Source: Gammaproteobacteria bacterium (GTDB lineage Bacteria; Pseudomonadota; Gammaproteobacteria; Eutrophobiales; Eutrophobiaceae). Taken from it: a stretch of DNA of 64,000 nt. Both the position numbers and the translations under genes were made by a program. Below the pieces are notes generated by a model. The model was not told the origin of the DNA, did no database searches, and saw nothing but the letters and a program-made list of their open reading frames with translations. The stretch is from NCBI GenBank assembly GCA_965116495.1, contig OZ220696.1, positions 1,216,001-1,280,000 on the forward strand. The letters are read 5' to 3'. This document shows positions 20,476 through 54,993 of the stretch, piece by piece (position 1 is the stretch's first letter; each line of letters begins with the position of its first letter).

Positions 20476-20491
20476 TATAACAAACGCTATA
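20476..20491. promoter_or_regulatory. Degenerate regulon operator
   Basis: TATAACAAACGCTATA upstream of the P450. Confidence 0.45.
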
Positions 20492-20666
20492 CAAAAAAGT
20501 TATCACCAGCCCGGATGTTGTGCAAGTAACTTATAAGGCGCAGTAATTGGGTATGCCTCCGGTTGGCTCCCAGTACGTTCGTTGAGTTTATCGGGCAGGC
20601 GTTCAAGGCCGCGCAACGACATGGCAGAAGAGAATACAAAGTCCAGACTATCCCGTATCCGGTCAG

Positions 20667-21437
20667 TCAAAGCTGCCAACCTCCATCGACGGCCAGGTTC
20701 ACACCCGATATGTACCTGCCTTTTTCTGATGCCAGGAAGACTACCGCATTGGCGATGTCTTCAGGTGTACCCAGGTTACCCAGGGGGACTTGCGCTGTAA
20801 TCGCCTTGATGGCCTTCTCGTCCATCTGGCCGTCCATACCTCTTGCCAGTTTTCCTCCTGCCAACCAGCCCGAACGGATGCTGTTTGCCCGGATGCCATA
20901 GCGACCATTTTCCCTGGCCACCACCTCCAGCAGGTTCTCAATGGCTGCCTTGGGCGCGCTGGAGAGCACACTCTTCGGCAGGTGTCGTGTCGCCTGGGTG
21001 GTGGTCACTGCGGTAATACTGCCGCCGCCGGTATCCTTCAATACGGGAAGCGCAGCCTGGATCAGGTTGAAACAGGCATGGGTGTCCTGCGTAAAGATGT
21101 TTTTCCAGGCTTCCAGACTTGTGGAACCGACAAAATCTATGGGTATTGCCGGACCTGCTGCATACACAACGCTATGGACGGCGACGTACTTTTCCTTGAC
21201 CTGCTGCATAAATGAATGGGTGGCAGCCTCATCATGCAAAGCCAGTTGATAGTAGTCCACTGCGATGTCTGAAGATATACAGGATTGCATTACCTGTCGC
21301 GCCCCCTGCTCGTTCAGGTGATAGGTGAACGCCACCGGCGATCCCGACCTCGCAAACGCCTCTACGATTGCCGCGCCGATCCCCCCGCTACCGCCGGCCA
21401 CAACCGCAACCCCCTCTTTAAACTCCTTTACACCCAT
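20667..21437 (-). CDS. SDR family oxidoreductase (atypical)
   Basis: AGGSGGIG; SSAPK in place of YxxxK; VDGG. Confidence 0.85.
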   Translation of the reverse strand: MGVKEFKEGVAVVAGGSGGIGAAIVEAFARSGSPVAFTYHLNEQGARQVMQSCISSDIAVDYYQLALHDEAATHSFMQQVKEKYVAVHSVVYAAGPAIPIDFVGSTSLEAWKNIFTQDTHACFNLIQAALPVLKDTGGGSITAVTTTQATRHLPKSVLSSAPKAAIENLLEVVARENGRYGIRANSIRSGWLAGGKLARGMDGQMDEKAIKAITAQVPLGNLGTPEDIANAVVFLASEKGRYISGVNLAVDGGWQL

Positions 21438-21468
21438 TATTCATTCAGCGCCAGATACGGCGATCAAT

Positions 21469-21482
21469 CAGCATATGCTATA
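21469..21482. promoter_or_regulatory. Regulon operator
   Basis: CAGCATATGCTATA upstream of the SDR. Confidence 0.7.
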
Positions 21483-21507
21483 CCTACCATACTGAGATTT
21501 CATTTAC

Positions 21508-21540
21508 AAAAAAAGCCACCAGTGTTGCTATTGGTGGCTT
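21508..21540 (-). terminator. Rho-independent terminator after the TBDR
   Basis: Stem AAGCCACCA/TGGTGGCTT followed by a T-tract on the minus strand. Confidence 0.72.
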
Positions 21541-21565
21541 CGTTATTTCGGATTGCGAGTTCATA

Positions 21566-24055
21566 CTAGAAATCGTATGCAATATATCCTCCAAGCTGTC
21601 TCGGATCGCCCGGGACGCCAAAAAGAAGGAAGCCGTTGCCGATCGCCCCGGTTTTGAAGTAGCCCTCGTCAAACAGGTTCCTGCCATAAAAACCAACCTT
21701 CCAGTTGCCGTTGTTGGGTATGTACTGCATGTTCAGATTAACGGTCGCATAACTGGCATCTGTCGTGCCGCCGGAACCAACGCGGTTCTCTGCGTCATAC
21801 CATGACCCATCGTTGTAGCGCAGCGAAGGTGTGATGCTCAGCTCACCGCTGGTGAGAAAAGGCACCCTGTAATCCAGTCCGGCTGCCAGTGTGAAGGGCG
21901 GGGCGCCGGCAAATTTCTTACCGTTCGTCGCCGCAAAGCCTGAAGTGCCGGCAAGGGTATTGAAAAAGGGTGAATCCTGCTCATATTCAGAATCCGTAAT
22001 GGTCATGTTCACATACCAGGTCAGGCCGTCATTTATCAGGCCGCTCAGATCAATTTCCGCACCGTACAGCTCACCCTCAGGCACGTTATAGATAACCTGG
22101 CCACCGACGTTGTTATCAATGAAGCTGATGTGGGGATTTTCGTAATCATAGTACCAGACCGCACCATTAACGAGCAGGTTACCACCCATCCATTGCGACT
22201 TGAAACCTATTTCATAGGATGTGACTTCCTCCGGTTCGGAAACACCAAATGCGGGGCCATCCGCATTCAGGTAGGCCGATTTGAAACCGGTGGAGGTACC
22301 ACCGTAGAACATCCAGCTATCCGTCTTGTATTCCAGCCGGGCCGTATAGGTAAATTCATCGTCTTCCCTTTCAATTAGTCCGGCATTGGCATTCAATATT
22401 ACCAGAACAGGGTTGGTAAAAGGGTTGGTCAGATCGGTATGATCCTGCAACTCCAGTTCGTCCCTGTTATAGCGGCCACCCAGGGTAACGCTCCAGTTAC
22501 CGGTAAACGGATAGGTAATCTGCCCATAGACCGCGTAGGAAGTGGTTTCCCATTCATTCCGGGTACTTATGTTAAAACCACCGAAGCTGTTGCCATCCAC
22601 ACCATGCAACTGCTGCTCGTTAAAATAATTAAAGCCGATGAGCCAGTCCCAGTCCCAGGTATCATTCGACACCAGACGGATTTCCTCCTGAAACATGTCG
22701 TTTTCATACTGGCCGGTAAATCCGAGGCCGAGATTTGGCAGGCCCAACAAGCCCAGGGTCACGGCCCCCGGACTGCTTGGATCGATATTACCCACACCTG
22801 CAGCGCCGAAATAGTCGATGTCCGCATACGCGGTAATGGATGTCAGGGTAAACCGTTCAAAATCGATGTCGATACGGCCGCTGAAAGCGGTCTCTTCGAC
22901 TTGATGGCCGGAACCGGAAAAGGGCGATGCACTACCAAGAGTACCCGCAACCAACGCCCCGCCAGCGCCGGCGCCGGCAATTTCATTGCTGTTAATCAAG
23001 TTGGCGTGAGTGCCGCCTCTCCCCCGGGAAAAGTCGATGCCGGCTGCGGTACCGATGGCAGTGGGTATCGGACCAATCGTAGGTATAACCAAAAAGGGTG
23101 TATTCCGGTCACCGGGCGGCAGTCCGAATCCGCCTCCCAGTATCCCGGCCATAAGGACTTCACCGCTGCTCAGACCGTTTGCCGCCAAGGTATCGGCATC
23201 AAGGCCAATTGCTGCCAATGGACCACCCGGAGCCGTGCGTGGATCAATCTGCCGGATTTGTGCCGCAGAGGGTACCTCCCGATCGGATAATCCATAGTAG
23301 ACATTAACCCCGTCAAGCTGGTCCAAATAGCTGCCCTTGAGCAGCACCGAGATATTGTCCTGTTCAAACAATAACTTGCCGGTCAACCCCCATTCTTCCA
23401 GATCATGTATGCCACCCCTGGCTAGGTTCTGGCTGTCGGGCAGAAAGTCGTAAAACGGGTCATGTTCCTTGAAAAAACCTTCCAGACTGAGAGCAGTGTT
23501 ATCCGTCAGGCCCGTTGCTGCATAAACACTCAGGTCTATTGCGTCATGTTCGCCATAGCCGACTTTAACATTACCGGACGGTCCAACGCCGACTTCCGGT
23601 CTCCTGGTCTCAATGACGATGGAGCCGCCGGTTGAGTTTTTCCCATACAACGCTCCCTGTGGACCTTTCAGAACCTGAACGCTGGACGTGTTAACACCGA
23701 CATTGCTGGCATAAGAACGTGGTATATACACACCATCCACATTGATGGTGGAACCCATATACACAGCGCCGCCCGGTATGATACTGCCCATCCCCCGGAT
23801 GACCGGTATCAGGTAGCCACCCGTATTCATCATGTTAACACCGGAAATGGCAGTGCCAAGCTCTTCCGTACGAGTAATCGCCGCTTTTTCCAGGCCTTCC
23901 TCTGTGAGTGCAGAAATCGAAATGGCTACATCCTGGATGGATTCCTCACGTTTCTGGGCGGTGACAATGATTTCTTCCAGTTGTGCCAGTGCCGGTGTCA
24001 TCGACAGGCACAGACCGGTTGTAATGACAGAAATGATGTATAGTTTAATTTTCAT
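21566..24055 (-). CDS. TonB-dependent receptor
   Basis: LEEIIVTAQKRE TonB-box region, VLKGPQGALYGKN, C-terminal YDF. Confidence 0.95.
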   Translation of the reverse strand: MKIKLYIISVITTGLCLSMTPALAQLEEIIVTAQKREESIQDVAISISALTEEGLEKAAITRTEELGTAISGVNMMNTGGYLIPVIRGMGSIIPGGAVYMGSTINVDGVYIPRSYASNVGVNTSSVQVLKGPQGALYGKNSTGGSIVIETRRPEVGVGPSGNVKVGYGEHDAIDLSVYAATGLTDNTALSLEGFFKEHDPFYDFLPDSQNLARGGIHDLEEWGLTGKLLFEQDNISVLLKGSYLDQLDGVNVYYGLSDREVPSAAQIRQIDPRTAPGGPLAAIGLDADTLAANGLSSGEVLMAGILGGGFGLPPGDRNTPFLVIPTIGPIPTAIGTAAGIDFSRGRGGTHANLINSNEIAGAGAGGALVAGTLGSASPFSGSGHQVEETAFSGRIDIDFERFTLTSITAYADIDYFGAAGVGNIDPSSPGAVTLGLLGLPNLGLGFTGQYENDMFQEEIRLVSNDTWDWDWLIGFNYFNEQQLHGVDGNSFGGFNISTRNEWETTSYAVYGQITYPFTGNWSVTLGGRYNRDELELQDHTDLTNPFTNPVLVILNANAGLIEREDDEFTYTARLEYKTDSWMFYGGTSTGFKSAYLNADGPAFGVSEPEEVTSYEIGFKSQWMGGNLLVNGAVWYYDYENPHISFIDNNVGGQVIYNVPEGELYGAEIDLSGLINDGLTWYVNMTITDSEYEQDSPFFNTLAGTSGFAATNGKKFAGAPPFTLAAGLDYRVPFLTSGELSITPSLRYNDGSWYDAENRVGSGGTTDASYATVNLNMQYIPNNGNWKVGFYGRNLFDEGYFKTGAIGNGFLLFGVPGDPRQLGGYIAYDF

Positions 24056-24079
24056 CGAATTCCCCCGTCGTCAGACATT

Positions 24080-24160
24080 GATATACGTACACGCTCTTGA
24101 CCTACGCAAGAGTATATAATAGTCATAGAACGTTTGCTATACTAGCAGATGCTACAAGGA
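24080..24160. promoter_or_regulatory. Duplicated promoter cassette, copy 1
   Basis: GATATACGTAC, CTCTTG-N7-CAAGAG (24094-24112), TAGCAGATGCTA (24143-24154); paralog at 29415. Confidence 0.75.
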
Positions 24161-24242
24161 AAAGACAGCAGCTGAGCATGAGTATAGCTGAGCATGTTGT
24201 CAACAATTAGAATTGTCCGGTTTAGAGCGTTGTTGATGTGCG

Positions 24243-25415: not shown

Positions 25416-25499
25416 TACCGCTACCAGTCGTTCACCACGTTACAGGGAGGCCGAAGCAACGACATAACCGTTATATCCATCGGAGACCTCATTTTTTTA

Positions 25500-26615: not shown

Positions 26616-26718
26616 TGCGTATTTCACTGAATCCTGCCACCCGTTTCACGTGAAGGCTGCCACCCGGAACGCAGCAAAGCTGCCACCCCCGGGCGCGTGA
26701 TGACGTGGGTGTTGGTCA

Positions 26719-27477
26719 TTATGACTCTGTTGGGGTCATCGTCGTCAATATTTTTTTCTGTTTTCGCATGGATTCTCCCTTGAGGTTGATTTTGTAAGCA
26801 TTGTGCACCAAGCGGTCGAGGATGGCATCGGCGAGGGTGGGGTCGCCGATACTGTCATGCCATTTTTCGGGCGGTAATTGACTGGTAGCGAGGGTGGAGC
26901 GTGCGCCGTGGCGGTCTTCCAGGATTTCCAGCAGGTCACGGCGCTGCTCTGCGTTCAGTTTGACCAGGCCCCAGTCATCGAGGATGAGGACCTGGGTTCT
27001 CGCCAGGGTGGACAGGAGTTTAGGGTAGCGTCCGTCCCCTTTGGCGATAGTCATGTCCTGGAGGAGTCTGGGCAGGCGCAGGTAGAGGGCGGTGTGGCCC
27101 ACTCGGCAGGCGCTGTGCGCCAGGGCGCAGGCGAGCCAGGTTTTGCCGACGCCGGTGGGGCCGGTGATGAGGATATTGAGGTGTTCCCTGACCCACTGGC
27201 AGGTGGCCAGTGATTGCATCAGGGATTTATCCAGTCCGCGCGGGTGGTGATAGTCGATATCCTCCAGGGCGGCATTGTGTTTGAGGCGGGCGCGGCGCAA
27301 CCGGTTGGAAGTGCGCCGGTTGTCCCGCTCGGTGAGCTCCCGGTCGACGAGCAGGCCGAGGCGTTCCTCGAAGCTGAGCGTGTCGATATCGGGCAGGGTC
27401 ATTTGCTCGGTGAGCGCGGCAACCATACCGGTGCACTTCAGGGTGTGGAGTTTATCCAGGGTGGGATGTGTCAACAT
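26719..27477 (-). CDS. istB: IS21 helper ATPase
   Basis: GPTGVGKT, LILDDWG, ADAILDRLVH; start MLTHPT at 27477. Confidence 0.95.
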   Translation of the reverse strand: MLTHPTLDKLHTLKCTGMVAALTEQMTLPDIDTLSFEERLGLLVDRELTERDNRRTSNRLRRARLKHNAALEDIDYHHPRGLDKSLMQSLATCQWVREHLNILITGPTGVGKTWLACALAHSACRVGHTALYLRLPRLLQDMTIAKGDGRYPKLLSTLARTQVLILDDWGLVKLNAEQRRDLLEILEDRHGARSTLATSQLPPEKWHDSIGDPTLADAILDRLVHNAYKINLKGESMRKQKKILTTMTPTES

Positions 27478-27496
27478 AGTGCTCTCCTGTTGTGGA

Positions 27497-29038
27497 TCAG
27501 TGGTAGTAGGATGGGCCACGCAGATTGTCGTGGTCATCAGGCAAGTCCGCCTCGGTCTGTTCGGCAAGGGGTTGCCGGTCGAGGCCGTGGCGGAGGATGG
27601 ATTCGAGACTCTTGTAGCTGTGGCTGCCCAGGGTGAGGGCGCGTTGGCAGGCGGCCTCCAGCCGGTCATTGCCATAGGTTTTGCCAAGACGCAGAATGCC
27701 TAAACAGCTGCGGTAGGCCTGCTGGGGGTGCTTGCGGGCAGACAGGACACGGAGGATAAGGGTTTCTGTGGCCGGCCCGACCTGCGCGGCCCAGCGGCCC
27801 AGGCGTTGCGGAGACCACTCGCCGGCCTGGCGGTGTGCCTCGGGCATGTGGGCCGTGACGGTGGTATGGCGCGCCTTGTGGCAGGAGCGCCGATGGCTGG
27901 CGATGCGTTGTCCACGGTGGAAACACTCAATGGTGTTGGCGGTGATGCGCACGTCCACTTGTTTTTTGATGAGCGCATGGGGCACGGAGTAGTAATGGCC
28001 ATGGACCTCGACGTGATAGTCGATATGGACCCGTGCCTGCTTCCACTCGGCGTATTCGTACGGCTCGACGGGCAGGGGGCGCAGGGCCGGTTTGTCCAGT
28101 TGCTCAAACAGGGTGCGCCGGGTGCCCGGCAGTTTCTTGAAGGGCCGGTTGTTGAGCGTCTCAAGCAACGCCCGGATGGCCCGGTTCAACTCGGCCAGGG
28201 AGAAGCACTGACGCCGGCGCAGCGCGGCGAGGATCCAGCGCTCCACCACCTGGACTGCGACCTCTGCTTTCGCTTTGTCACGGGGGCGCCGCACCCGCGC
28301 CGGGACGATAGCGACCCCGTAATGGGCGGCCAGGTCCTGGTAGGTGGGGTTGATATCCGGCTCATACCGGTGTGCCCTGGCAACGCCTGCGCGTAAATTG
28401 TCGGGCACCACCACCGCCGGCACACCACCGAAGTAGTCAAAACAGCGCACGTGGGCGCCGGTCCAGTCTGCCAGTCCCTGGGTCCAGGTGGCCTCGGCAT
28501 AGGTGTAGTTCGATGCACCCAGCGCTGCCACAAACACCTCTGCCTCACGCACCTCCCCGGTCGCCGGGTTGATGACCTGGGCACGCATACCGGCATAATC
28601 CACGAACAGCTTCTCACCGGCCCGGTGACTCTGGCGCATCACCAGGTCCAGCTTGCCGGCCCAGGCCCGGTACTGCCGGCAGAACCAAGTGTACTGATAC
28701 CCGTGCGGGTAAGTCTGGCGATACTCATGCCATAACAACTGCAGGGTGACGCCCGGGCGTTTCAACTCCCGATGAACTTCTGACCAATCGGGCATGCCGC
28801 GGGCCGCAGCGGGCACGGCCGGGGTGGGCGGAAACAGCAGACGCTCCAGCGCCCCGTCATCCAGCTCAACCGGCAACGGCCAACCCAGCCCGGCCGCCTC
28901 GGCCCGGCGCAGGTACGCATCCACCGCCGGACGGGAAAGGCCACAACTCCTGGCGGTCTGGCGTTTACTCAGGCCCTGGCCCCAACACAGGCGTAATACT
29001 TCTTTTATCTTTCTCATGGACAACCTCTTTGCGGGCAT
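27497..29038 (-). CDS. istA: IS21 transposase
   Basis: [19 protein letters not shown]. Confidence 0.95.
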
Positions 29039-29124
29039 CTGTGTCTCCTCCTTTCAGTAGAAATAAGGACACAGGATACCCGTGGTTATCCACGTCAAAC
29101 GCGCCGGCTATCTACCTCCCTGGG

Positions 29125-29210
29125 GGTGGCAGCTTTGCCGTGTAATGGGTGGCAGCTTTCGTGTGTAATGGGTGGCAGCTTTGCCGTATAATCGGTGGCA
29201 GCTTTGCCGT
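29125..29210. repeat. IS21 subterminal transposase-binding repeats
   Basis: GGTGGCAGCTTT four times at 23-bp period; complementary CTGCCACC copies at the other end. Confidence 0.85.
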
Positions 29211-29220
29211 GAAATACGCA

Positions 29221-29414: not shown

Positions 29415-29497
29415 GATATACGTACAACAGCCTCTTGACCTGCGCAAGAGCATATAATAGGTTTATATCGATTGCTATACTAGCATATGCTATAAGG
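29415..29497. promoter_or_regulatory. Duplicated promoter cassette, copy 2
   Basis: GATATACGTAC, CTCTTG-N7-CAAGAG (29432-29450), TAGCATATGCTA (29481-29492). Confidence 0.78.
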
Positions 29498-29602
29498 ATA
29501 AAGGCCGATGAAAAGGCAGCTAATGTTGCGGGTGCATTGCATTCACCTGCTAAAACCAGTTATATTTCAGAAAAAACAATCGGTTACGCGGGAGGATATA
29601 GC

Positions 29603-31710: not shown

Positions 31711-31784
31711 ATATTGTCGCCCATCGTGTGGTTGCAGACTTTGTATTAATTCCGGCTTGCAGGTTTCCAACAATAAGTTTATTG

Positions 31785-31796
31785 TAGCATGTGCTA
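31785..31796. promoter_or_regulatory. Regulon operator
   Basis: TAGCATGTGCTA between the divergent BASS and CoA-transferase genes. Confidence 0.7.
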
Positions 31797-31834
31797 TATT
31801 CGTTACAACCCGTGAGGCCGGGAGAAAAAATCAA

Positions 31835-35797: not shown

Positions 35798-36547
35798 ATG
35801 AATAAGCAATTACAAACCTTGCCGGACAAACAGGCCATTGGTGAAATGATGTGTGTCTGGGCGGGGTTCGTCAGTATTACGCTCTTTGTAATTACATGGA
35901 TAGTCGCTGTGGAATGGCTATTTCCGCCACCGCCAGACTTGAACGCGACTGAAATAACGGATGTATACCTGAAAAATACAATCGGGATAAAAATTGGCAC
36001 TGCGGTAATAACCAATTTTGCCGCACCGTTAACACTCGTATTTGCGGCAATTATCACAATTTACATGTTGCGAATGAAAGGCCCATCTCCCGTACTTGCG
36101 TATATTAACCTCGCTACCTCAGCCATACAGGTATTGATCTTTATTATCCCGACGGAAATTTTTGCAGCGACGGCATTTCGTCTCGACAGGAACCAGGAGA
36201 TTACCCAGTTTGGCAATGACCTGGGCTGGCTAATTTTTGACAACGTGGTGGGCCCAACCCAGGTGCAGTGGCTGGCGATTGCCCTGGCAATCCTTTGGGA
36301 TAAGAGTGAGCAGCCACTATTTCCCCGTTGGTTTGCCTGGTTCAACATATGGGGCGCCACGGTTATCCTGCTTAATAATCTTGTCCTCTTTTTTAAGACC
36401 GGGCCCTTTGCCTGGAATGGTTTACTCGGCTGGTGGCCAGGCGCCGGTATATTTTGTTTGTGGTACTACGTCGCTTTTTATGTCATGTTCAAGGCAGTGC
36501 AAAAGCACCATCGTCTAATCGCAAATCAAACAACGCATAAAAACTGA
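35798..36547 (+). CDS. hypothetical integral membrane protein
   Basis: About 6 hydrophobic segments; NDLGW, FPRW, GPFAWNG. Confidence 0.75.
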   Translation: MNKQLQTLPDKQAIGEMMCVWAGFVSITLFVITWIVAVEWLFPPPPDLNATEITDVYLKNTIGIKIGTAVITNFAAPLTLVFAAIITIYMLRMKGPSPVLAYINLATSAIQVLIFIIPTEIFAATAFRLDRNQEITQFGNDLGWLIFDNVVGPTQVQWLAIALAILWDKSEQPLFPRWFAWFNIWGATVILLNNLVLFFKTGPFAWNGLLGWWPGAGIFCLWYYVAFYVMFKAVQKHHRLIANQTTHKN

Positions 36548-36679
36548 AGCTTAAGGAAAATATATAAATGTTTCGCCTGTAGTACGCATACCCACCTCTT
36601 TTTTCGAGTAGTTTCCCGACTCTTGAAATCGGCAACAGCCTGGTCTTTTAATGTTCGGGGATTATATCCGTCACTAATA

Positions 36680-36691
36680 TAACAAATGCTA
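36680..36691. promoter_or_regulatory. Degenerate regulon operator
   Basis: TAACAAATGCTA inside TATA flanks, upstream of the GST. Confidence 0.6.
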
Positions 36692-36767
36692 TATAATATT
36701 CCATCACTCGGTGAAAATAAGCAAAGTGACATTGCTCTCATAGAGCATTTGATATATTATTGTCCAG

Positions 36768-39373: not shown

Positions 39374-39442
39374 CTGGATTAGACTTGTACTCCGTTATTT
39401 AAATAACAGTTTATTTGTTACTGACAGATCCTGACATCCCGC

Positions 39443-39471
39443 TTGACCGCGAGTATAGCATATGCTATATT
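39443..39471 (+). promoter_or_regulatory. sigma70 promoter with the regulon operator in its spacer
   Basis: TTGACC-N17-TATATT overlapping the perfect TATAGCATATGCTATA (39454-39469). Confidence 0.8.
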
Positions 39472-39543
39472 TAATAAACGGCGGGACCAATCAGCGCATC
39501 CTCCACCGGACTTTATTTTACATGGCTTTCCCGGAGACAACTG

Positions 39544-40317
39544 ATGAACCATATCGAGACCTACGCGAAATTTGGCATCCACGAAGGCTGCCTGACTGAG
39601 TTCCAGTCCCGTGTCAAAACCCTGGTTGATGTGGTGAAGGAGAAGGACCCCGGCACGCTGCGTTACGACTGGTTTATCAATAGCGATAAAATGGAGTGTG
39701 TGGCAATGGACGCCTACATCGATGAGGAATCCATGTACGCCCACCAGAGAAATGCCGCAAAGTATATGGGGGCGGTGCTGGAATGCTCGGATATATCTGT
39801 CGTATTCCTGGGCCTGCCTTCTGAACCCGCGCGTGAAAAAATCATGAAATTCAAGCCCCGTCTGTTTGATTTCCATAGCGGTCTGGGAAACGAGTCAGCC
39901 GCTTCAGGATTTTCACCCGTTGAGATACCCGGCGGCAGCAGTCACATCGAGGTATACGCCCAATTCACCGTTGAACCGGAGCATTATGATTTATTCAAAC
40001 AAACCGCTTCAGAACTCCTTGAAATTGTAAAACGGGATGATTTGGAGACGCTACGTTACGACTGGTTCTACGATGATGAAAACTGTCAGTGCACTACCAT
40101 GGATATCTATAAGGACGCGGAAGGCATGTTCTCCCATATGAAAAACGCCCATGAAAAGCACAGCGAACTCATGCGGTTCTCCACTCTCTATACTGAATTT
40201 CTGGGCGAACTGCCGGAGCAGGCCCGGTCAGCGGTCGCGAAGTATGACCCGAATATCCTGCCGTTTTTTAAAGGACTGAACTCCTGCTCCTCGGGAGGGC
40301 TAAACCGGGCAGGTTAA
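39544..40317 (+). CDS. tandem two-domain ABM-like (dimeric alpha-beta barrel) protein
   Basis: Internal repeat HIExYAxF...TLRYDWF...MDxY..H occurs twice. Confidence 0.72.
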   Translation: MNHIETYAKFGIHEGCLTEFQSRVKTLVDVVKEKDPGTLRYDWFINSDKMECVAMDAYIDEESMYAHQRNAAKYMGAVLECSDISVVFLGLPSEPAREKIMKFKPRLFDFHSGLGNESAASGFSPVEIPGGSSHIEVYAQFTVEPEHYDLFKQTASELLEIVKRDDLETLRYDWFYDDENCQCTTMDIYKDAEGMFSHMKNAHEKHSELMRFSTLYTEFLGELPEQARSAVAKYDPNILPFFKGLNSCSSGGLNRAG

Positions 40318-40379
40318 ATGGTCTGTTAAAATTACTGTCACTTTACAGCAACCTTGAGGTAAGCACAGGTAAAACGAAT

Positions 40380-41789
40380 ATGGAAAATTTTCAATTATTG
40401 ATTAATGGGAAACTCACTCCCGGCGCTTCCAGCATGGATGTTATCAATCCGGCAAACGGTCAGGTTATCGCCGAATGCCCCCGGGCGGATGAAAATCAGC
40501 TTAATGCAGCCGTGGCAGCGGCTAAAGCAGCTTTTCCCGCCTGGTCAATGCTGGATATCGGAGACAGGCGCCAAAAATTGATGGCCATCGCTGACGGTCT
40601 TGAGGCAAAGACCGGGCAGTTCGCGTCATTGCTGACAGCAGAGCAAGGCAAGCCGATTAAAGAGGCGACTGAAGAAATTATCGGGACGTCGATGATGATG
40701 CGGGCGCTTGCGAGCATGGAATTGCCGGAAAAAGTTGTGATGGACGATGAATCAGGAAAATTTATCGAGCATCGCTCACCACTAGGCGTAGTGGCCGCGA
40801 TTACGCCCTGGAATATGCCGGTAACCCTGCTGGCAATTAAAATGACGTCGGCCCTGCTCACCGGCAATACCGTGGTGGCAAAACCGGCTCCCACCACCCC
40901 GCTGACTTCATTGTTATTCGCAGAAATGGCGGACGCGCATCTGCCCCCGGGCGTGTTTAATATTATCACTGACCGGAACGACCTGGGTACGGCCCTCACA
41001 CGTCATCCGGACGTGGCAAAAATTTCCTTCACAGGTTCTTGCGCTACCGGAAAGAAGGTAATGGAAAGTGGTTCACAAAGCCTGAAGCGGGTTACTCTCG
41101 AACTTGGGGGAAACGATGCTGCGATCGTGCTTGACGACGTCGACCCCAGGGATGTTGCGGCGAAACTTTTCGCCGGCGCCATGTTCAACTGTGGCCAGAT
41201 TTGCCTCGCCACCAAGCGAGCCTATGTCCCTGCATCTATCTATGACGAGGTCTGCGATGAACTGGCTCGCATGGCCAATGAAACCAGGGTAGGAGACGGC
41301 AGCCAGCCTGATACCGAGATGGGTCCTGTCCAGAATAAGATGCAATTCGAAAAGGTGAAAGACTTAATCGAATCCGCGAAGGCGGAAGGGACAATCATCG
41401 CCGGTGGTGAAACCATGGATGGCCCCGGTTACTTCATTCGCCCCACGATAGTCCGTGATGTCGACGAGGATGCACGTATCGTTAAGGAGGAACAGTTTGG
41501 GCCGGTTCTGCCGGTTCTCCGCTACGATGATCTGGAAGACGCCATCGCCAGGGCAAATGACACGCACTACGGCCTGGGTGGTACGGTCTGGACCTCCGAT
41601 GCAACACGAGGCGCCGAGGTCGCCAGGCAAATCCACACCGGCATCTGCTGGGTGAATGCCCATCTGGCTGTCCATCCTGCTGTCTCGGTAGGCGGCGCCA
41701 AACAATCCGGCCACGGCACGGAACTGGGCGCTGAAGGCCTGGAAGAATTCACGCAACGCCACATTGTCTACGTCGCCAAGCAGGGCTAG
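40380..41789 (+). CDS. aldehyde dehydrogenase
   Basis: TPWN, FTGS, LELGG, GQIC, EEQFGP. Confidence 0.95.
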   Translation: MENFQLLINGKLTPGASSMDVINPANGQVIAECPRADENQLNAAVAAAKAAFPAWSMLDIGDRRQKLMAIADGLEAKTGQFASLLTAEQGKPIKEATEEIIGTSMMMRALASMELPEKVVMDDESGKFIEHRSPLGVVAAITPWNMPVTLLAIKMTSALLTGNTVVAKPAPTTPLTSLLFAEMADAHLPPGVFNIITDRNDLGTALTRHPDVAKISFTGSCATGKKVMESGSQSLKRVTLELGGNDAAIVLDDVDPRDVAAKLFAGAMFNCGQICLATKRAYVPASIYDEVCDELARMANETRVGDGSQPDTEMGPVQNKMQFEKVKDLIESAKAEGTIIAGGETMDGPGYFIRPTIVRDVDEDARIVKEEQFGPVLPVLRYDDLEDAIARANDTHYGLGGTVWTSDATRGAEVARQIHTGICWVNAHLAVHPAVSVGGAKQSGHGTELGAEGLEEFTQRHIVYVAKQG

Positions 41790-41833
41790 TCACTCAACTC
41801 CGGAGTTGCCCAACACGCAATGGGTGGACCAGG

Positions 41834-42838
41834 CTACTCCGGGGGAAAACTCAACATTTCGAATGGGGAGAATCCCTCCCCGGTATCGGCATTGAGCGCC
41901 AAGTGTACCGGCCCGGTGCCACTTCGAGCATTGGAGGAGATCTCGGCATCGCAGTATCCCTGCATGCCATGGCCTTCCACCTCACACATCATCTCCACCA
42001 TCACAACAGTACCGCGCTGGAACAGCACTCCGGCCATAGCAGTCAGTTCTAGGTAAATTTTCTCTCCACCTTCAAGGGTCAGGCGGATCTCACCCCCGCG
42101 GTGGGTCAACCCATCCGGTTCCATATAGGCAATCACGTCTATCCCGGTTGCTCTCGACAGCCGGTTATCACGCACAACATAACCTACACGAACCAGCTTG
42201 CCCGTGGGCGCCTGCGCAGTGATGGCCGCGAATGAGAAGGCTTCACCCATAGTGCCGGTGAACCAGCGATGGTTTAGCATGCCCCGTTCCCAGTCACGGG
42301 TTCCCCAGCTATGATCTCTGTAACCCAGACCTTTTATCGGGATTAATTGCCCCTGGTATCTGACCTCACCAGTGACCTGTCCTGCCACTTCAAAATGGTG
42401 GGGGAAGCGCCTGGCAGCCAATTCGTCGCCTGGCGGGAAAGGGTCCACGAGGTCAAAGAAATTACGGCATGACAGTCGGGCAATCAGGTCGCCATCGTTA
42501 ATCAACCAGATGGACGCATCATCCTCATACTGGCAGCGGAGTCGTTCGCCGGCGCCGAACCCGTTGGCAAATTCGTCTCCTGCGGCCAAGCGCATATCGG
42601 TGCAGCAACGATACTGCCAACCGGTTTTGCTGAACAGGTAACTCCATATGACCGCGCGACCGCCCTGGTTATTGGGTTCGTGGCCGACCCGGTGCCATCC
42701 GCCGATTCCGTGATCGCGGTCATACCAGTGCAACAAGGCACTTTCCTGCCATATGGACTCCTCTCCCGCCAGGTGGCGAAGTTCATCGCGCACAGTGAAT
42801 GGAGAGTGTGTGAGAGGGGCAGCATTGGTCATTGGCAT
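41834..42838 (-). CDS. hypothetical protein, AttH/tocopherol-cyclase-like (DUF7064/7065-like)
   Basis: WQES...WYD, HFEV, GLGYRDHSWGTRDW, GYCDAE. Confidence 0.62.
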   Translation of the reverse strand: MPMTNAAPLTHSPFTVRDELRHLAGEESIWQESALLHWYDRDHGIGGWHRVGHEPNNQGGRAVIWSYLFSKTGWQYRCCTDMRLAAGDEFANGFGAGERLRCQYEDDASIWLINDGDLIARLSCRNFFDLVDPFPPGDELAARRFPHHFEVAGQVTGEVRYQGQLIPIKGLGYRDHSWGTRDWERGMLNHRWFTGTMGEAFSFAAITAQAPTGKLVRVGYVVRDNRLSRATGIDVIAYMEPDGLTHRGGEIRLTLEGGEKIYLELTAMAGVLFQRGTVVMVEMMCEVEGHGMQGYCDAEISSNARSGTGPVHLALNADTGEGFSPFEMLSFPPE

Positions 42839-42878
42839 TCTCCCTGGGTTGTGGCAGCATAGCCACCAGGTTTAAATA

Positions 42879-42890
42879 TAACATATGCTA
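42879..42890. promoter_or_regulatory. Regulon operator
   Basis: TAACATATGCTA in the 70-bp divergent gap. Confidence 0.75.
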
Positions 42891-42908
42891 TAGAAAGGGG
42901 AATATATC

Positions 42909-44420
42909 ATGCGGGACGTTTCTGCATTATTGCTGCGTGCAATCAGCGATCAACTGAGGGACAGGATTATTCCGGACCTCACGGCTGCCGACGCCATAGA
43001 ACGAGCCACCCTTTCGACCCAGGTCCTTGAGTTACTGGCGTCTGATATCGATACACTGGCTGATGTAGCCGAGGTCCACACCCCTGAGTTTCGGAAAACG
43101 ATTAAAACGGTACTTGGAACCCTGCCACGGGAGGTGTTTACGGAACTTCTGGAGAACTGGCTCAGCCGTCTTGACGCAATTGCACCTGAGACAGGCCTTG
43201 CCTGCCAACGGGAAATTCGCACCTTGCGCGATCTTTCCGCACATCTTCTGCGAGCCTGCGCCGATCGATGCGATGAACTACCAGAGGGTGATACGCATAG
43301 CACGATATCAACCGTGGCGGCAACCCTGGGGGCGCAGGACCGGCGCTTGCTGGATGCTGTTGCCGCGGCCGGTTCCGTGCGGGAAGAAAAGCGGCAGGAC
43401 GTCAATGGCGGCCAGGACAAGGACTCTGCCGCACCGGCCGGTATCGAGTTAAGCCCCGAATCCGTTACGGGGTATCTCCGTCAACGTTACCCGGACTCTC
43501 CTGCCGTTAAGGCTACCGGTGTCGTAGCAATTCCCGGCGGCAGGTCGAAAAAAACCTGGATCATTTCCATTGAAAATACGGATGCCCTTCCGCGAGAAGT
43601 GGTCATGCGCCAGGATTATCAATTGCATTACGAGGGAACCAAGGTTCGGAATGAATATGAGCCGCTGGCGACATTCTCGGGACTTGGACTGCCAGTGCCG
43701 GCGCCACTGCTGTTGGAAACCGAAGAGACCAGCCTGGGACAGCCCTTTATGTTGATGGAAAAGCGCGCAGGCGTGCCGCCAGGCACCTATTTCGGCTTAC
43801 GCGATAAATGTCCCGGCGCATTCGCCGACCTCGCCAATACCCTGGCCTGTATTCATCAGGCTGATCCGGATGGATTGGGGTTTACTCCCGACGGGGACCC
43901 GGAACAAGGCCTCATGCGCCTCATCGGCAGCTACCAGGAAAAATGGCGAAAATATTCCAATAAACCGTCGCCGATCATCGACTTCGCCTGTTGCTGGGCA
44001 AAACAAGTGTGCCGCCAGGACCCGGGAACGGTTGCGGTTGTGCATGGTGATGTCGGGCCTCACAATATGCTGGTGGCAAATGACCGGCTCACTGCGCTGC
44101 TGGACTGGGAGTTCTCCCACCTGGGTGATCCCGCGGAAGACCTGGGGATAGCGAGGGTCTATGCCGAAGATGTTATGGCCTGGGAGGAATTCATCCACCT
44201 GTACAGGGAAGCCGGCGGCCCGCCTGTGCCGGCGCGGCGAATTGAACTGGCGATGGTTCTGCATTTTTTGAAAGGCGCCAGTCTTGTGGCCGTGTCGAGC
44301 CGTAATTTCGAGGAAGGCTGGACCAGTGAGTTCATTAAGGGAGCCACGTCATTTGCCGGTTTGAGACAGATTGAACTTGTAATCGGATCCTTACTGCACC
44401 GCTTTAATGCAATCCCATGA
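42909..44420 (+). CDS. APH/ACAD10-11-like phosphotransferase with N-terminal helical extension
   Basis: IPGGRSK, VHGDVGPHN, LLDWEF, GDPAEDL. Confidence 0.87.
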   Translation: MRDVSALLLRAISDQLRDRIIPDLTAADAIERATLSTQVLELLASDIDTLADVAEVHTPEFRKTIKTVLGTLPREVFTELLENWLSRLDAIAPETGLACQREIRTLRDLSAHLLRACADRCDELPEGDTHSTISTVAATLGAQDRRLLDAVAAAGSVREEKRQDVNGGQDKDSAAPAGIELSPESVTGYLRQRYPDSPAVKATGVVAIPGGRSKKTWIISIENTDALPREVVMRQDYQLHYEGTKVRNEYEPLATFSGLGLPVPAPLLLETEETSLGQPFMLMEKRAGVPPGTYFGLRDKCPGAFADLANTLACIHQADPDGLGFTPDGDPEQGLMRLIGSYQEKWRKYSNKPSPIIDFACCWAKQVCRQDPGTVAVVHGDVGPHNMLVANDRLTALLDWEFSHLGDPAEDLGIARVYAEDVMAWEEFIHLYREAGGPPVPARRIELAMVLHFLKGASLVAVSSRNFEEGWTSEFIKGATSFAGLRQIELVIGSLLHRFNAIP

Positions 44421-45696: not shown

Positions 45697-45710
45697 CGTA
45701 TTCCAGCTCC

Positions 45711-46733
45711 TTAGATTTCTTCTATGGCCTTGACAATGTCATACTGAATTTCATTATCAACCAGCTCAAGATTACATTGAATGGTGTCAATAAAATCACC
45801 AAAGCGTTGTTTGACTACCGGCGCAATGTCTTTTGGTTCACCCCTGACCGTGAAGGTATCCATCATTTCATCAGTAATGGGCTTCCACAAGTCGTCCCAT
45901 TTCCCTTCCTTGGTCATTTTCCTGCATTCCGGATGGATGTCGCTCCAGCCGTGCATATCGAGTACGACCTTGTAAGCCGGCGTAGAGGCATAAAAACCGA
46001 GGCGTTGGCGATGCCAGTCATCGTTAAACTTAAACTCATCCTCATTACTGCCGGTGACGATGTAAAGAGGCACCTGTATTTCAAATTCCGAGCGCGGTTT
46101 ATTGTTCTTTTTCAGTCTTTCCCGTATTGCCGCATAGTTGATTTCCCGCAGGGTTTTTTCAGACACAAAAGAATGGGTCATCAGGCCATCTGCTACATCC
46201 ACGGCAGCCCTGGTCATGCCCGGTCCCACGGCGCCAAGCATTACTTTGGGCCGCCCAAAACCACCAATCCACGGTTTAAATTCCGGGGTAATTAACGTGT
46301 GTCGATACGTCTCCCCGATAAAATTCAAGGGATCGTCACTCTCGAATGAGTCCCAGATAGCGTGTAAGGCATTTACATATTCCCGCATTTGACTCGCCGG
46401 TTTATCGCTCCATGGCATACCAAAGCGGCGGGAGATATGAGGTTTTATCTGGGAACCCAGACCTAAAGTAAAGCGCCCTTCGCAATACTGATTCAATGAA
46501 TACGACTCCATAGCCATTACCATCGGCGGTTTTGAAAAAGCCACGGCAATGGCAGTCGCAAATTCGGCCTCTTTATCATGGCTTGCGCACAGCAATGGAA
46601 GGAAAAACGGATTTGTTTTGTTTTCGAAACCGAAGAATGATTTATATCCCAGTTTTCTTTTGTGTAAAAAATCGGGCAACACATTGTTCAGATTGCCGGA
46701 GTGATTACTACGCAGCCTTTGTATCACTTTCAT
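45711..46733 (-). CDS. LLM-class oxidoreductase, probably F420-dependent
   Basis: TAIAVAF, GRFTLGLGSQIKPHI.RRFGMPWS, FYASTPAY; divergent N-terminus. Confidence 0.78.
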   Translation of the reverse strand: MKVIQRLRSNHSGNLNNVLPDFLHKRKLGYKSFFGFENKTNPFFLPLLCASHDKEAEFATAIAVAFSKPPMVMAMESYSLNQYCEGRFTLGLGSQIKPHISRRFGMPWSDKPASQMREYVNALHAIWDSFESDDPLNFIGETYRHTLITPEFKPWIGGFGRPKVMLGAVGPGMTRAAVDVADGLMTHSFVSEKTLREINYAAIRERLKKNNKPRSEFEIQVPLYIVTGSNEDEFKFNDDWHRQRLGFYASTPAYKVVLDMHGWSDIHPECRKMTKEGKWDDLWKPITDEMMDTFTVRGEPKDIAPVVKQRFGDFIDTIQCNLELVDNEIQYDIVKAIEEI

Positions 46734-46764
46734 ACTCTCTACCTCGCTGTATCTGTTGACTCAT

Positions 46765-47520: not shown

Positions 47521-47680
47521 GACAGGGTTTAACGCGCAGTGTCCCCGCCTGGTCAGGCGACGGTAACGCCTGGTTCCGTGCTTCGGGCATTTCCATATCG
47601 TAAGGGGGATTGACGAGATTGAAATTCGGGGTCATGGGTTTTGCTCCTCGATCACATGACCACGGGTTACGAGTACAGGT

Positions 47681-48493: not shown

Positions 48494-48522
48494 GAACTCT
48501 CCCCAATAATTGTGCTTTATGA

Positions 48523-49308: not shown

Positions 49309-49386
49309 ATTAAACCTCGGAAACTATTAAACCAGGTACCATAAAAAATGCCCACGCAAGCACGGGCCGTCTTCGGTATGATTGTC

Positions 49387-50292: not shown

Positions 50293-50456
50293 TAATCTTC
50301 TCCTCTCCTGTGTCATCAGGAATCATGGCTCTTTTAACTTCAACGTAACAAGGTGCAGTGACAGCCATACCAGCGCATGCGGCTCGGGCCATATTTAAGC
50401 CGGTATGCCACCTGACAGGCGAGAGATGCAATCCTGTCCGGGCCTTGTTTTGTTAA

Positions 50457-50472
50457 TATAGCATATGCTATA
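50457..50472. promoter_or_regulatory. Regulon operator
   Basis: Perfect TATAGCATATGCTATA overlapping TATAAT, between the divergent SDR and TBDR. Confidence 0.82.
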
Positions 50473-50600
50473 ATTATTGCGATAGTTAAGCAATCGTCTG
50501 GATAATACCAAACTTATTGCTGTATCAAATACCCAGGGGTACACAAGACGTTTAACGACAATGCATGGTTAATATATACAAAAGCAAATTGGGGGTTTAC

Positions 50601-52796: not shown

Positions 52797-52823
52797 ATTA
52801 TCATTCTTATTGGCGAAGCTACT

Positions 52824-53693
52824 CTACTCTTCCCGGAGCAAGTCCGAATGTCCGATTCTTTCCCGGGCAGGGTTGGGTCTCATCATAATGGACATGCCGC
52901 CATCTACGATGACCTCCGTACCGGTAACGTAGCTACCGGCGTCACTGGCCAATAGCTGGACCTGGCCTTCAACTTCCTCGGGACGACCCAACCGGCCAAG
53001 GGCCGAATTACCGGCAAAATCCTTAACAAAAGCCTCGCCGGCGCCCGGGCCATCCATTTGATCAAGGAGTTCAACTACGTTGGTTTGCATCATGTCTGTG
53101 TGGAAGGCGCCCAGGATCAGGCTGTTCACGGTAATACCATCATGGCCCAGTTCAGCCGCGGCCATCCGGGTGTAGGCATTAATCGCCCCTTTCGACGCTG
53201 CATACATCGACTGGCCGATTGATACAGCTCTGAGGGAAGATTCTGATGAACTGAAAATAATTCTGCCCCATTGTTTTTTTTTCATATGGGGTAGAAAACG
53301 TGTTACCAGGGAGACATTCGCGGCAAAGTTGACCTGCATCAGGTTTGCCATTATTTTCTCCTGGTCATCACTGACGCCAAGTCTTGCTTCCTGTCCCGCA
53401 TTACCGATAAAGATATCAACACCACCGAGTGTATCAATAACATAGTCCACCGAGTGCTCAATGTCTTCCCTGTCCGACAGATCGATCTTGCGGTAAATTA
53501 CGGCATTGCCGGAATCCTCAGAAAGTTGTTTTGCCGCATCTTTAAGGACTGTTTCACGACGGGCGGCTATCATCACACCCGCACCGGATCGGGCCAGGCC
53601 CCTGGCCATATAATATCCCAGGCCGGTGGCTCCCCCGGTGACAAAGGCTGTTTTACCGGTCAGATCAAACTTTTTAAACGCATCGATATTCAC
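52824..53693 (-). CDS. SDR family oxidoreductase
   Basis: TGGATGLG, GNAG, YAASK. Confidence 0.92.
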   Translation of the reverse strand: MNIDAFKKFDLTGKTAFVTGGATGLGYYMARGLARSGAGVMIAARRETVLKDAAKQLSEDSGNAVIYRKIDLSDREDIEHSVDYVIDTLGGVDIFIGNAGQEARLGVSDDQEKIMANLMQVNFAANVSLVTRFLPHMKKKQWGRIIFSSSESSLRAVSIGQSMYAASKGAINAYTRMAAAELGHDGITVNSLILGAFHTDMMQTNVVELLDQMDGPGAGEAFVKDFAGNSALGRLGRPEEVEGQVQLLASDAGSYVTGTEVIVDGGMSIMMRPNPARERIGHSDLLREE

Positions 53694-53703
53694 GTTCGAT
53701 TGA

Positions 53704-54870
53704 TCAGATTGTACGGCTGATTATCAAACGCATTATTTCGGATGTGCCGGCGAAAATACGGTGCAGGCGAGCCCCTGTATATAAACGAGAGACATTATAT
53801 TCATCCATATAGCCTGCCCCACCATGGAATTGAACACATTGATCGATAATCCTGCCTTCCATCTCGCATACCCAGAGTTTCGCCATGGCACAAAGTTCCA
53901 TGTCCAGCTTGCCATTTGCCCTGTAGTTGCGAATGATTTCGTCAAGGAAGGCGCGGCCAACAGCTAACTCCGTCTTGATTTCCGCCAGTTTGAACCGGGT
54001 ATTCTGGAACTCAAAAACAGGTTGACCAAAGCTGTTGCGGTTCTTTACAAATTCAACAGTTTCATGAAACGCCCGAGTCGCTGCAGCGTGACCAATGAGG
54101 GGCCATGTTATGCGATCCATGTTGACACCGCCGAGCAGAATACCCATACCCTTGCCTTCAACCCCCATCAAATTACCGGCTGGAACATGAACATTATCAA
54201 AAAATATTTCTGCCGTATTACTGGCATGATTACCCATCTTGTGCAGGTCACGTCCCAATTGAAATCCCCCGCGATCAGCCTCAACAATGATGACCGAGAT
54301 ACCCTGGGCGCCCGCTGCCGGATCGGTTTTACAACCCACCATAAAGAATTTGGCGTCCTTCGCATTGGAGATATAGGTTTTGGAGCCGTTGATTACCCAT
54401 TCATCCCCTTTCCGCACAGCCGTGGTCCGCATGGAGGCAACATCGCTACCGGAAGCGGGTTCTGTGATGGCAAGACCGGCGCGCGCTTCCCCTTTGACCA
54501 TAGCCGGCAACCATTTCCTGCGTTGTTCTTCGGTACCGTTTCGATAGAGAATTTCACTGCAGCCATCGCCAATCAAAGCGGGACCCATGCTGGCCCCGGC
54601 CGGGCTGTATCCCAACTCTTCAGCAATCACCATCCGGTACATGAAGTCCCCACCAGGTCCACCGTATTCTTCGGGAATATCCACACCTAAAATGCCGACC
54701 TCGCCGGCTTTCAACCAGAACTCAGGTTCCGGGCCACCAATTTCTATCCAACGGTCAACGTTGGGCTCTACCTCTTCTTCCAGAAAGCGCCGGAATGTCT
54801 GGCGGAAAATTTCGTGTTCCTCATCCCAGAGAGCTGGGTTGTGTGGGTAATACATTGCTGTTATCTCCAA
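53704..54870 (-). CDS. acyl-CoA dehydrogenase-like flavoprotein (LCAD-like)
   Basis: TEPASGSD, INGSKTYISN, FHGGAGY, GTSEI; start may be the ATG at 54855. Confidence 0.92.
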   Translation of the reverse strand: MEITAMYYPHNPALWDEEHEIFRQTFRRFLEEEVEPNVDRWIEIGGPEPEFWLKAGEVGILGVDIPEEYGGPGGDFMYRMVIAEELGYSPAGASMGPALIGDGCSEILYRNGTEEQRRKWLPAMVKGEARAGLAITEPASGSDVASMRTTAVRKGDEWVINGSKTYISNAKDAKFFMVGCKTDPAAGAQGISVIIVEADRGGFQLGRDLHKMGNHASNTAEIFFDNVHVPAGNLMGVEGKGMGILLGGVNMDRITWPLIGHAAATRAFHETVEFVKNRNSFGQPVFEFQNTRFKLAEIKTELAVGRAFLDEIIRNYRANGKLDMELCAMAKLWVCEMEGRIIDQCVQFHGGAGYMDEYNVSRLYTGARLHRIFAGTSEIMRLIISRTI

Positions 54871-54981
54871 TTATTGAAATCGGCCCGGATACCGAGCTGT
54901 AATCAGTGTGCTACGCGTACATGGAGCACATTACCGCGTTTCCCTGTTCCATTGTCTATTCCTGGTTGGCGGTTAATTAAA

Positions 54982-54993
54982 TAGCATATGCTA
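54982..54993. promoter_or_regulatory. Regulon operator
   Basis: TAGCATATGCTA upstream of the ACAD. Confidence 0.8.

Follow-up and report, generated by a model that had tools for sequence, protein, structure and literature searches.

The locus and its recurrent palindrome

The window considered here, a 64,000-nucleotide stretch (G000:C1:1,216,001-1,280,000; contig OZ220696.1 of assembly GCA_965116495.1) from a member of the Gammaproteobacteria, contains part of a catabolic cluster of about 57 genes that spans 18,057-84,345 (66 kb), positions past the right edge being given either in genome coordinates or as window-equivalents, in which the window count is simply continued. Distributed between these genes is a perfect 16-bp palindrome, TATAGCATATGCTATA, AT-rich out to 20 bp, which has the two half-sites and the ~15-20 bp length of a TetR operator. 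This palindrome, the TetR-type protein that probably reads it and the genomic island on which both are found are the subject of what follows.

A total of 19 sites lie in 14 intergenic regions, from window 20,476 to window-equivalent 81,214. The leftmost (20476..20491, 3 mismatches) is 51 bp upstream of a cytochrome P450-alcohol dehydrogenase gene pair on the minus strand (19178-20425 and 18057-19151), and the next (21467..21482, 3 mismatches) is 30 bp upstream of a minus-strand short-chain dehydrogenase/reductase (SDR) gene (20667-21437). Two weak tandem sites (24126 and 24141, together 24126..24156, 4 mismatches each) precede the minus-strand gene for a first TonB-dependent receptor (21566-24055), while a second tandem (29464 and 29479, together 29464..29494) lies between a second P450 gene on the minus strand and a 3-hydroxyisobutyrate-dehydrogenase-like gene on the plus strand; the partners at 24126 and 29464 each have 4 mismatches and are 15 bp from the neighbouring site. 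An ~80-bp promoter block holding both tandem sites is thus present twice (24085-24170 and 29420-29510), and each copy also holds an inverted repeat, CTCTTG-N7-CAAGAG, that is perfect in the genome only at those two places, with a one-mismatch copy at 36620, upstream of the 36678 site. An IS21-type element (istA, istB; 26616-29219) breaks the second P450 gene near its N-terminus and cuts it, together with the following acyl-CoA dehydrogenase gene, from their site; in the related genome G022 this P450 is a single 420-codon frame.

Further to the right, a site at 31783..31798 separates the divergent genes of a transporter of the bile-acid:sodium-symporter (BASS) family and of three family III CoA-transferases, and two sites (36678 and 36741, together 36678..36756) lie upstream of glutathione S-transferase and SDR genes. 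A perfect site (39454..39469) sits between a DUF7064 gene and divergent genes for an ABM-domain protein and an aldehyde dehydrogenase, another site (42877..42892) between divergent genes for a DUF7065/7064 protein and an APH-family phosphotransferase, and a second perfect one (50457..50472) between a run encoding an SDR, two enoyl-CoA hydratases, a hydrolase, a luciferase-like monooxygenase (LLM) family oxidoreductase and a ferredoxin reductase, and the divergent gene of a second TonB-dependent receptor. The site at 54980..54995 lies upstream of an acyl-CoA dehydrogenase-SDR pair; its single mismatch reads as the consensus T, giving a perfect palindrome, in three other genomes and in all four metatranscriptome runs, and the assembly letter may therefore be an error or a local variant. 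The remainder of the window (55114..64000) is occupied by part of a minus-strand operon encoding an indolepyruvate-type 2-oxoacid oxidoreductase, which starts 2 bases past the edge, an NmrA protein, cumate-type Rieske alpha and beta subunits, an APH kinase and a third P450.

The predicted promoter of this operon is the site at genome 1,281,475, past the window edge, which lies between an amidohydrolase-ferredoxin-oxidoreductase operon and a divergent CoA-transferase gene. A site at genome 1,286,869 is associated with an acyl-CoA dehydrogenase-extradiol dioxygenase-second Rieske pair, and two more, at genome 1,291,157 and 1,291,228, separate a run of two acyl-CoA dehydrogenase genes, a MaoC gene and a TetR gene from a divergent run encoding an HMG-CoA-synthase-like protein, a thiolase, a MaoC protein and a CoA ligase. 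The last tandem (genome 1,297,184 and 1,297,199) lies between a DUF4386-like gene and genes for COX3-like and COX4-like proteins, an enoyl-CoA hydratase and AtuA.

Distribution of the palindrome

Ten matches with up to 3 mismatches occur in the window, against a mean of 0.13 in 100 dinucleotide shuffles, none of which reached ten. Genome-wide, the 16-mer has 3, 3, 6 and 8 matches at 0, 1, 2 and 3 mismatches; all 12 copies with up to 2 mismatches fall within genome 1,245,479-1,297,214 (52 kb), seven inside the window and five past its right edge, and 16 of the 20 copies with up to 3 mismatches fall in the catabolic cluster. The preliminary description of this DNA had proposed that the motif defines a regulon, unless it were equally frequent across the genome, and it is not. 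The extent of ~35 kb given there was too short, since the sites run over about twice that distance, and the list of ten positions was sound for nine (most of which marked the inner 12-mer and so lay 2 bases to the right of the 16-mer start), with 4 mismatches at the remaining one (24141), while the site at 36741 (3 mismatches) and the tandem partners at 24126 and 29464 had been overlooked. In a held-out test, a weight matrix built on the ten window sites alone gave the six sites of the following 17 kb scores of 17.2-25.9, higher than at any other position outside the window (14.6 at best).

All 19 island sites are non-coding, against 7.3% non-coding DNA in this region, which bears out the earlier statement that they are intergenic and upstream of genes; the count relies on three start codons shifted downstream (29603, 31835 and 31710), and with longest open reading frame (ORF) limits 3 of the 19 overlap ORFs. 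Every one of the eight divergent junctions between 18,057 and 84,345 has a site, and six further sites or pairs precede internal gene starts. No site with up to 3 mismatches is present in the left 17 kb of the island, which holds toxin-antitoxin modules, a DUF3604 gene, a first TetR gene and an MMPL gene. Neither the 16-mer nor its inner 12-mer appeared in any paper among the matches listed by a full-text literature search, the scope of which lay outside RegPrecise, subscription journals and supplements.

The second TetR as candidate regulator

The preliminary description had found no obvious regulator in view. The predicted cognate gene lies 7 kb past the window edge (genome 1,286,999-1,287,670, or L001:10999-11670, minus strand, 223 aa), as the last gene of the run headed by the two strong sites at 1,291,157 and 1,291,228, and hence within the cluster itself. 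Its product, hereafter the second TetR, matches Pfam PF00440 (E 7.6e-16) and has the predicted structure of an ordinary TetR (predicted local distance difference test score 80.8), its fold matching PhlH, BkaR and FasR, of which the best solved fold, PhlH, is 20% identical. It belongs to a small clade of 18 proteins at 47-96% identity, two of them named as proteins of Halieaceae and Porticoccaceae metagenome-assembled genomes (MAGs), in which the helix-turn-helix is nearly invariant (18 aligned sequences). Nine representatives were found at E <=1e-30 among 1.84 billion sequences, viral contigs gave none, plasmids gave matches of about 26-35% only among the best 25 of 100 records listed, and G000 alone has an orthologue in a 400-genome sample of the class (one genome unscored).

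The motif and the second TetR occur together. Within the family, the protein is found in 4 of 126 genomes, and among 61 related genomes clusters of 11-13 motif copies with up to 2 mismatches are found in exactly the four that encode it (G000, G005, G010 and G022), the other 57 having 0-5 copies; two of these 57 carry a distant TetR match (27-31%). The association extends to more distant loci, of which five with a 47-70% orthologue (L032-L036) were tested. In L032 and L033, which represent one lineage (TetR 70% identical), two sites with scores of 19.6 and 16.9 immediately precede the TetR gene, with orthologues of the COX4-like and AtuA genes across the divergent region from it, and in L036 (47% identical) one site with a score of 16.2 lies in the divergent region heading a Rieske alpha-beta-TetR operon. 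No site was seen in L034 and L035, since their contigs begin inside the Rieske gene and lack the promoter region. By comparison, 27 control loci with distant TetRs (224,853 bp) contain no match with up to 3 mismatches, and the weight-matrix maximum in 30 control loci (348,057 bp) is 11.9. Judged from these sequence comparisons, the palindrome is likely the operator of the second TetR, present in 14 intergenic regions of the 66-kb catabolic cluster on a tRNA-anchored island.

Gene content of the cluster and the number of pathways

Pfam and NCBIfam scans, covering most of the genes of the cluster, give a set of oxidative enzymes, comprising three P450s, alcohol and aldehyde dehydrogenases, two Rieske alpha/beta pairs, one ferredoxin, one reductase and an extradiol dioxygenase, together with an amidohydrolase, the indolepyruvate-type 2-oxoacid oxidoreductase, a CoA ligase, AtuA and pairs of APH kinases with DUF7064-7065 proteins. 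A beta-oxidation-type set is formed by five acyl-CoA dehydrogenases, four family III CoA-transferases, enoyl-CoA hydratases, MaoC hydratases and a thiolase with an HMG-CoA-synthase-like/OB-fold partner, and transport by the two TonB-dependent receptors and one BASS transporter. Relatives of the first Rieske alpha at 52-73% identity are auto-labelled p-cumate 2,3-dioxygenase where named by the Joint Genome Institute; the second Rieske alpha is 42% identical to the first, and the extradiol dioxygenase shares 35-38% identity with VOC proteins of plasmid operons with cumate-like gene content. Solved structures gave no substrate assignment.

From this content a route can be proposed in which the TonB-dependent receptors and the BASS transporter would import a lipophilic compound, which the P450, alcohol dehydrogenase and aldehyde dehydrogenase would oxidise to an acid. 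After cumate-type Rieske dioxygenation the ring would be opened by extradiol cleavage, and the 2-oxoacid oxidoreductase would decarboxylate the product before beta-oxidation of a branched chain. There is perhaps an even chance that the substrate class is a lipophilic alkyl- or prenyl-substituted aromatic, within which no single compound can be named.

It is possible, if less probable than a single route, that the TetR regulon is real and bundles several pathways recruited by promoter-block copying, a scenario that is compatible with the second TetR as regulator. The duplicated ~80-bp block with its tandem sites would fit it, as would the repetition of enzyme types (P450s, Rieske pairs, acyl-CoA dehydrogenases and CoA-transferases) and the fact that in L036 the site is found only at the Rieske/DUF7065-kinase region. 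However, the enzymes can be arranged into one upper-to-lower route like that of the edc cluster, as it is described in PMC7793797, a single ferredoxin and a single reductase were found for the whole cluster, and L032 ties the motif to orthologues of the lower pathway as well.

Several features of the gene content are recorded here in their own right. APH-family kinases are repeatedly paired with DUF7064/7065 (tocopherol-cyclase-like) proteins (window 38384-44420 and 56454-57791; L002:6065-8554; L036:2773-7731). Two paralogous DUF4386-like membrane proteins are 33% identical (window 35798-36547 and the L002:432-2140 region), and the ESM Atlas neighbours of two proteins with no assigned family were only DUF4386-like and DUF7064/tocopherol-cyclase-like. 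The COX3-like/COX4-like pair has no other oxidase subunit adjacent, and in L032 the motif likewise faces the COX4-like gene. The LLM oxidoreductase (45711-46733) scores above the cut-off of TIGR03617, labelled F420-dependent, in a gammaproteobacterial genome.

Other candidate regulators

That the palindrome might be the operator of another protein, be it the first TetR (10545-11267), an antitoxin of the island toxin-antitoxin modules or a regulator encoded elsewhere in the genome, appears improbable. The first TetR is on the same island and shares a weak CecR_C match with the second, and L036 encodes other regulators. However, the surroundings of the first TetR gene, which the preliminary description (placing it at 10686) had rightly set aside as leading candidate, and of the toxin-antitoxin genes contain no site with up to 3 mismatches; the first TetR shares just 27% identity with the second, and an orthologue of it is absent both from L032 and from the 20.6 kb of L036. 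If the regulator belonged to the core genome, sites would be expected elsewhere in this genome and also in congeners that lack the island; these, 19 of the 23 congeners, have 0-2 copies.

Probable overlap of the operator with promoter elements

Extended -10 promoter elements follow the consensus TRTGnTATAAT. The palindrome agrees with this consensus in its right half, TATGCTATA, and, on the opposite strand, in its left half, which means that the palindrome consists of two back-to-back extended -10 elements, a point that the preliminary description had missed. Across all 38 site orientations, in sites chosen by their likeness to the motif, neither the G of the TG (position 11 of 16) nor the T that opens the hexamer (position 13) ever varies, and positions 4 and 6 are invariant as well; TG-n-TAnnnT is complete at 17 of 30 gene-facing site ends. 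Most of the 19 sites overlap -10-like hexamers, with start sites that are predicted only. TTGACC is found 17 bp upstream of the hexamer at 39454, where the site had been said to fill the spacer of a TTGACC-N17-TATATT promoter (at 39443); the promoter element is there, but the site takes in 12 bases at the end of the spacer and also four at the start of the -10 hexamer. The overlap of TATAAT with the 50457 site was described correctly.

These features raise the question of whether the palindrome is a symmetric promoter core alone, bound by RNA polymerase only. Bidirectional promoters arising from -10 symmetry are described as common (PMC12825309), and one or two copies of the motif occur in 15 of 400 other genomes, compared with six for the reversed pattern. 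However, none of the 191 TGCTATA half-sites outside the cluster matches the left half at 6-7 of 7 positions, against 13 of 22 inside it; no other genome among 400 of the class has more than two copies with up to 1 mismatch; six regions where genes start on just one of the two sides retain the symmetry; the tandem pairs, with their 15-bp spacing, better suit cooperative binding; and the motif accompanies the second TetR into distant lineages. Taken together, these observations make a promoter core bound by polymerase alone highly improbable. The arrangement also departs from the shared -10 type of Warman, in which, according to PMC12825309, known bidirectional promoters have one shared -10 and start sites 18, 10 or 23 bp apart, whereas the geometry predicted here is of two separate hexamers, each opening at palindrome position 13 of its own strand, with start sites ~33 bp apart. 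Because the promoter-only explanation is unlikely and the predicted spacing differs from that of known bidirectional promoters, we infer an operator that would coincide exactly with one or two extended -10 elements. In contigs from four metatranscriptome runs, all belonging to one study, coverage of the cluster is patchy, and such contigs carry no strand, start or level.

A mechanism can be envisaged for the second TetR. A dimer would bind the two TATAGCA half-sites and, each half being an extended -10 (TG-n-TATA plus two flanking bases), would cover the bases read by sigma-70, silencing one or both divergent operons together until a pathway substrate or acyl-CoA intermediate released it.

The island and its probable transfer between species

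The cluster is found in G005, G010 and G022 in blocks that are mostly 98-99.6% identical (about 99%), while the four host genomes are only 74-85% (rpoB) and 71-80% (gyrB) identical to one another. The shared block ends at a tRNA-Thr(CGT) gene in G005 and G010, beyond which identity falls to 74-82% in G005; in the present genome this gene (genome 1,304,630-1,304,704, window-equivalent 88,630-88,704) is the right island boundary. A 13-bp copy of its 3' end at window 1019..1031 (plus strand) is the likely left boundary, the corresponding copy in G022 matches at 24 of 25 bp, and the island is ~88 kb long. It has a tRNA 3' end on one side and a direct repeat of it on the other, and, as is characteristic of tRNA-anchored islands, it is patchily distributed and more alike between genomes than their core genes are. 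In the 100 kb examined of G010, the left end carries a tRNA-Arg and a complete tRNA-Thr is absent, and no integrase was detected among 77 distinct ORFs scanned against Pfam, a scan that took in part of the ORFs and was not aimed at integrases. The island appears to have been transferred recently between several bacterial species. Three related records are titled as MAGs and the Pfam scan yielded no integrase, as an assembly or binning artefact behind the ~99% identity across four species might predict, but this is hardly credible, and the less likely because the copies differ by ~1% with different insertions/deletions and flanks, three of the four being on single-contig genomes, with the drop in identity just past the tRNA in G005 and ends that carry the tRNA 3' repeat.

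In G022, identity (L030 against L002:8700-17900) remains at a block mean of ~98.7% to 3 kb past the tRNA and at 92.8% for 5.5 kb more, compared with 85% for rpoB, which hints that recombination carried the flanks along. The left end of the island holds four toxin-antitoxin-like pairs (one Gp49/HTH and three AbiEii-type; 2365-8417), whose presence and order vary among the four genomes, followed by a separate motif-free module (8622-17822) with DUF3604, TetR, MMPL and LolA-like genes and a gene for a 418-aa protein of no assigned family. An imperfect palindrome at 10656 precedes the first TetR gene, and a DDE transposase insertion (14067-16153), absent from the three other genomes, splits the LolA-like gene (13715-14092 and 16127-16603). 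Left of the island (G000:C1:1,174,000-1,206,000) there are further ORFs of catabolic appearance, judged by eye to resemble Rieske, acyl-CoA dehydrogenase and TonB genes, that lack the motif.

Weighing the regulon

A number of observations weigh against the picture of one TetR governing one pathway through these sites. Footprinting among the four near-identical genomes gave no signal, 10 of 301 site positions (3.3%) being variable compared with 146 of 3,981 other intergenic positions (3.7%), a null result explained by the four island copies being too alike for power. Because all four share the whole island, co-occurrence in these genomes cannot single out the TetR, and the testable independent lineages with an orthologue number only two. 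One of these, L036, also encodes an AraC protein and a further TetR, no more than 8 kb from the site, and its orthologues of the P450 and CoA-transferase genes (66%) have no site, which detracts from the otherwise plausible claim, made in the preliminary description, that the genes form a single pathway. A regulator gene with a site in its own promoter, which that description had thought worth seeking, is found in L032/L033 and, as an operon promoter, in L036, but directly upstream of the G000 gene there are only two half-sites with a 7-bp spacer and no canonical site, the two sites of its run lying at the head. The -10-like reading does not track direction either, TAnnnT being present at 20 of the 30 ends that face a gene and at 4 of the 8 that do not, with no discrimination between them. 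Finally, no characterised enzyme is close, the best solved Rieske structure matching at E 2.5e-38 and the best plasmid P450 at 36% identity.

The split half-sites themselves (L001:11770-11810, genome ~1,287,790), in which the spacer is 7 bp instead of 2, are retained in L031 with a changed middle, and are possibly a weak or staggered autoregulatory site.

Even so, a single dimeric repressor acting on the catabolic genes is the best reading of these sequences. Its reach over most of the island, as first proposed, amounts to ~66 of 88 kb, the left 17 kb being free of sites at the threshold used. A more ambitious and quite tentative idea would make the 16-mer a portable switch, the same bases acting as operator and as two extended -10 promoters placed back to back. 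Each new copy of the palindrome would then install a repressible bidirectional promoter, and such copying might have brought the ~57 genes of an undescribed aromatic terpenoid-like pathway under the control of one TetR; the 88-kb island that bears them would at present be spreading among species with core genes that differ by 15-29%.

Comparison with known systems

In terms of architecture, a close parallel is EdcR, which controls the oestrogen-degradation (edc) cluster of Caenibius (Novosphingobium) tardaugens and is described as a TetR repressor with a palindrome over the -10 box of divergent promoters, a proposed operator TnnCnnTACnAnTnGTAnnGnnA and a TetR_C_11 domain (PMC8700777). By gene content, as far as it is set out in PMC7793797, the edc cluster shares with the present one a P450, an extradiol dioxygenase, an indolepyruvate-type oxidoreductase, a thiolase, an HMG-CoA-synthase-like gene, acyl-CoA dehydrogenases, MaoC, a TonB receptor and a TetR. 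However, it has 17 genes, with no Rieske dioxygenase among those listed there, compared with ~57 genes and 14 site-bearing regions here. CymR, the TetR repressor of the p-cymene/p-cumate (cym/cmt) system, is reported to bind ACAAACAGAC-N6-GTCTGTTTGT (PMC5224996, PMC12980060). The likeness lies in a TetR set over an alkyl-aromatic pathway, with cumate-labelled Rieske relatives, dioxygenase, ferredoxin, reductase and extradiol dioxygenase present. Among the scanned ORFs there is no CymA-type monooxygenase and no hydratase/aldolase/acetaldehyde dehydrogenase lower pathway, nor any Pfam or NCBIfam match to the CmtD-H lower pathway among those of the cluster, save one alpha/beta hydrolase; P450s and the large beta-oxidation set take the place of those steps here.

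The regulon is neither that of EdcR nor that of CymR, because their operators, compared by eye, differ from the palindrome. In addition, the second TetR matches CecR_C and not TetR_C_11 (Pfam).

A further comparison, by description, is with the dit clusters for abietane diterpenoids in Pseudomonas abietaniphila and Paraburkholderia xenovorans (PMC10710418). These are likewise large, with P450s, ring-hydroxylating and extradiol dioxygenases, an amidohydrolase and beta-oxidation for a lipophilic terpenoid. The Rieske enzymes here differ in grouping with cumate-labelled proteins. Regulation of dit is by an IclR protein (DitR) plus a TetR. The actinobacterial KstR and KstR2 cholesterol regulons, named in PMC8700777, likewise combine one TetR, many palindromic sites and lipid-catabolic genes, but their motif is a different one, and the KstR2 match to the second TetR reaches only E ~1.5e-6. 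Finally, the Sphingopyxis macrogoltabida plasmid NZ_CP013345 (L061) also carries two Rieske pairs, an extradiol dioxygenase, the same oxidoreductase family, a thiolase, MaoC and TonB receptors, with 33-43% identity for ring enzymes and 68% for one acyl-CoA dehydrogenase. It differs by having a dmpG-type lower pathway; the whole plasmid contains no motif copy with up to 3 mismatches, and L061 gave no match to the second TetR at E 1e-15. What emerges is probably a conventional TetR-type regulon, of which the operator, regulator clade, pathway and substrate are not previously described.

Implications

An unrecognised motif has been turned into a testable repressor-operator pair, and borders have been drawn for an unstudied catabolic pathway in uncultured Gammaproteobacteria. 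As TetR proteins work in laboratory hosts, the predicted TetR-operator pair offers a direct screen for the inducer, and hence for the compound that the P450s, three in number, and both Rieske dioxygenases attack. Should operator and promoter core prove to be one, the palindrome would represent a compact, naturally bidirectional inducible element. That four divergent species carry nearly the same island suggests current selection for the use or detoxification of this compound.

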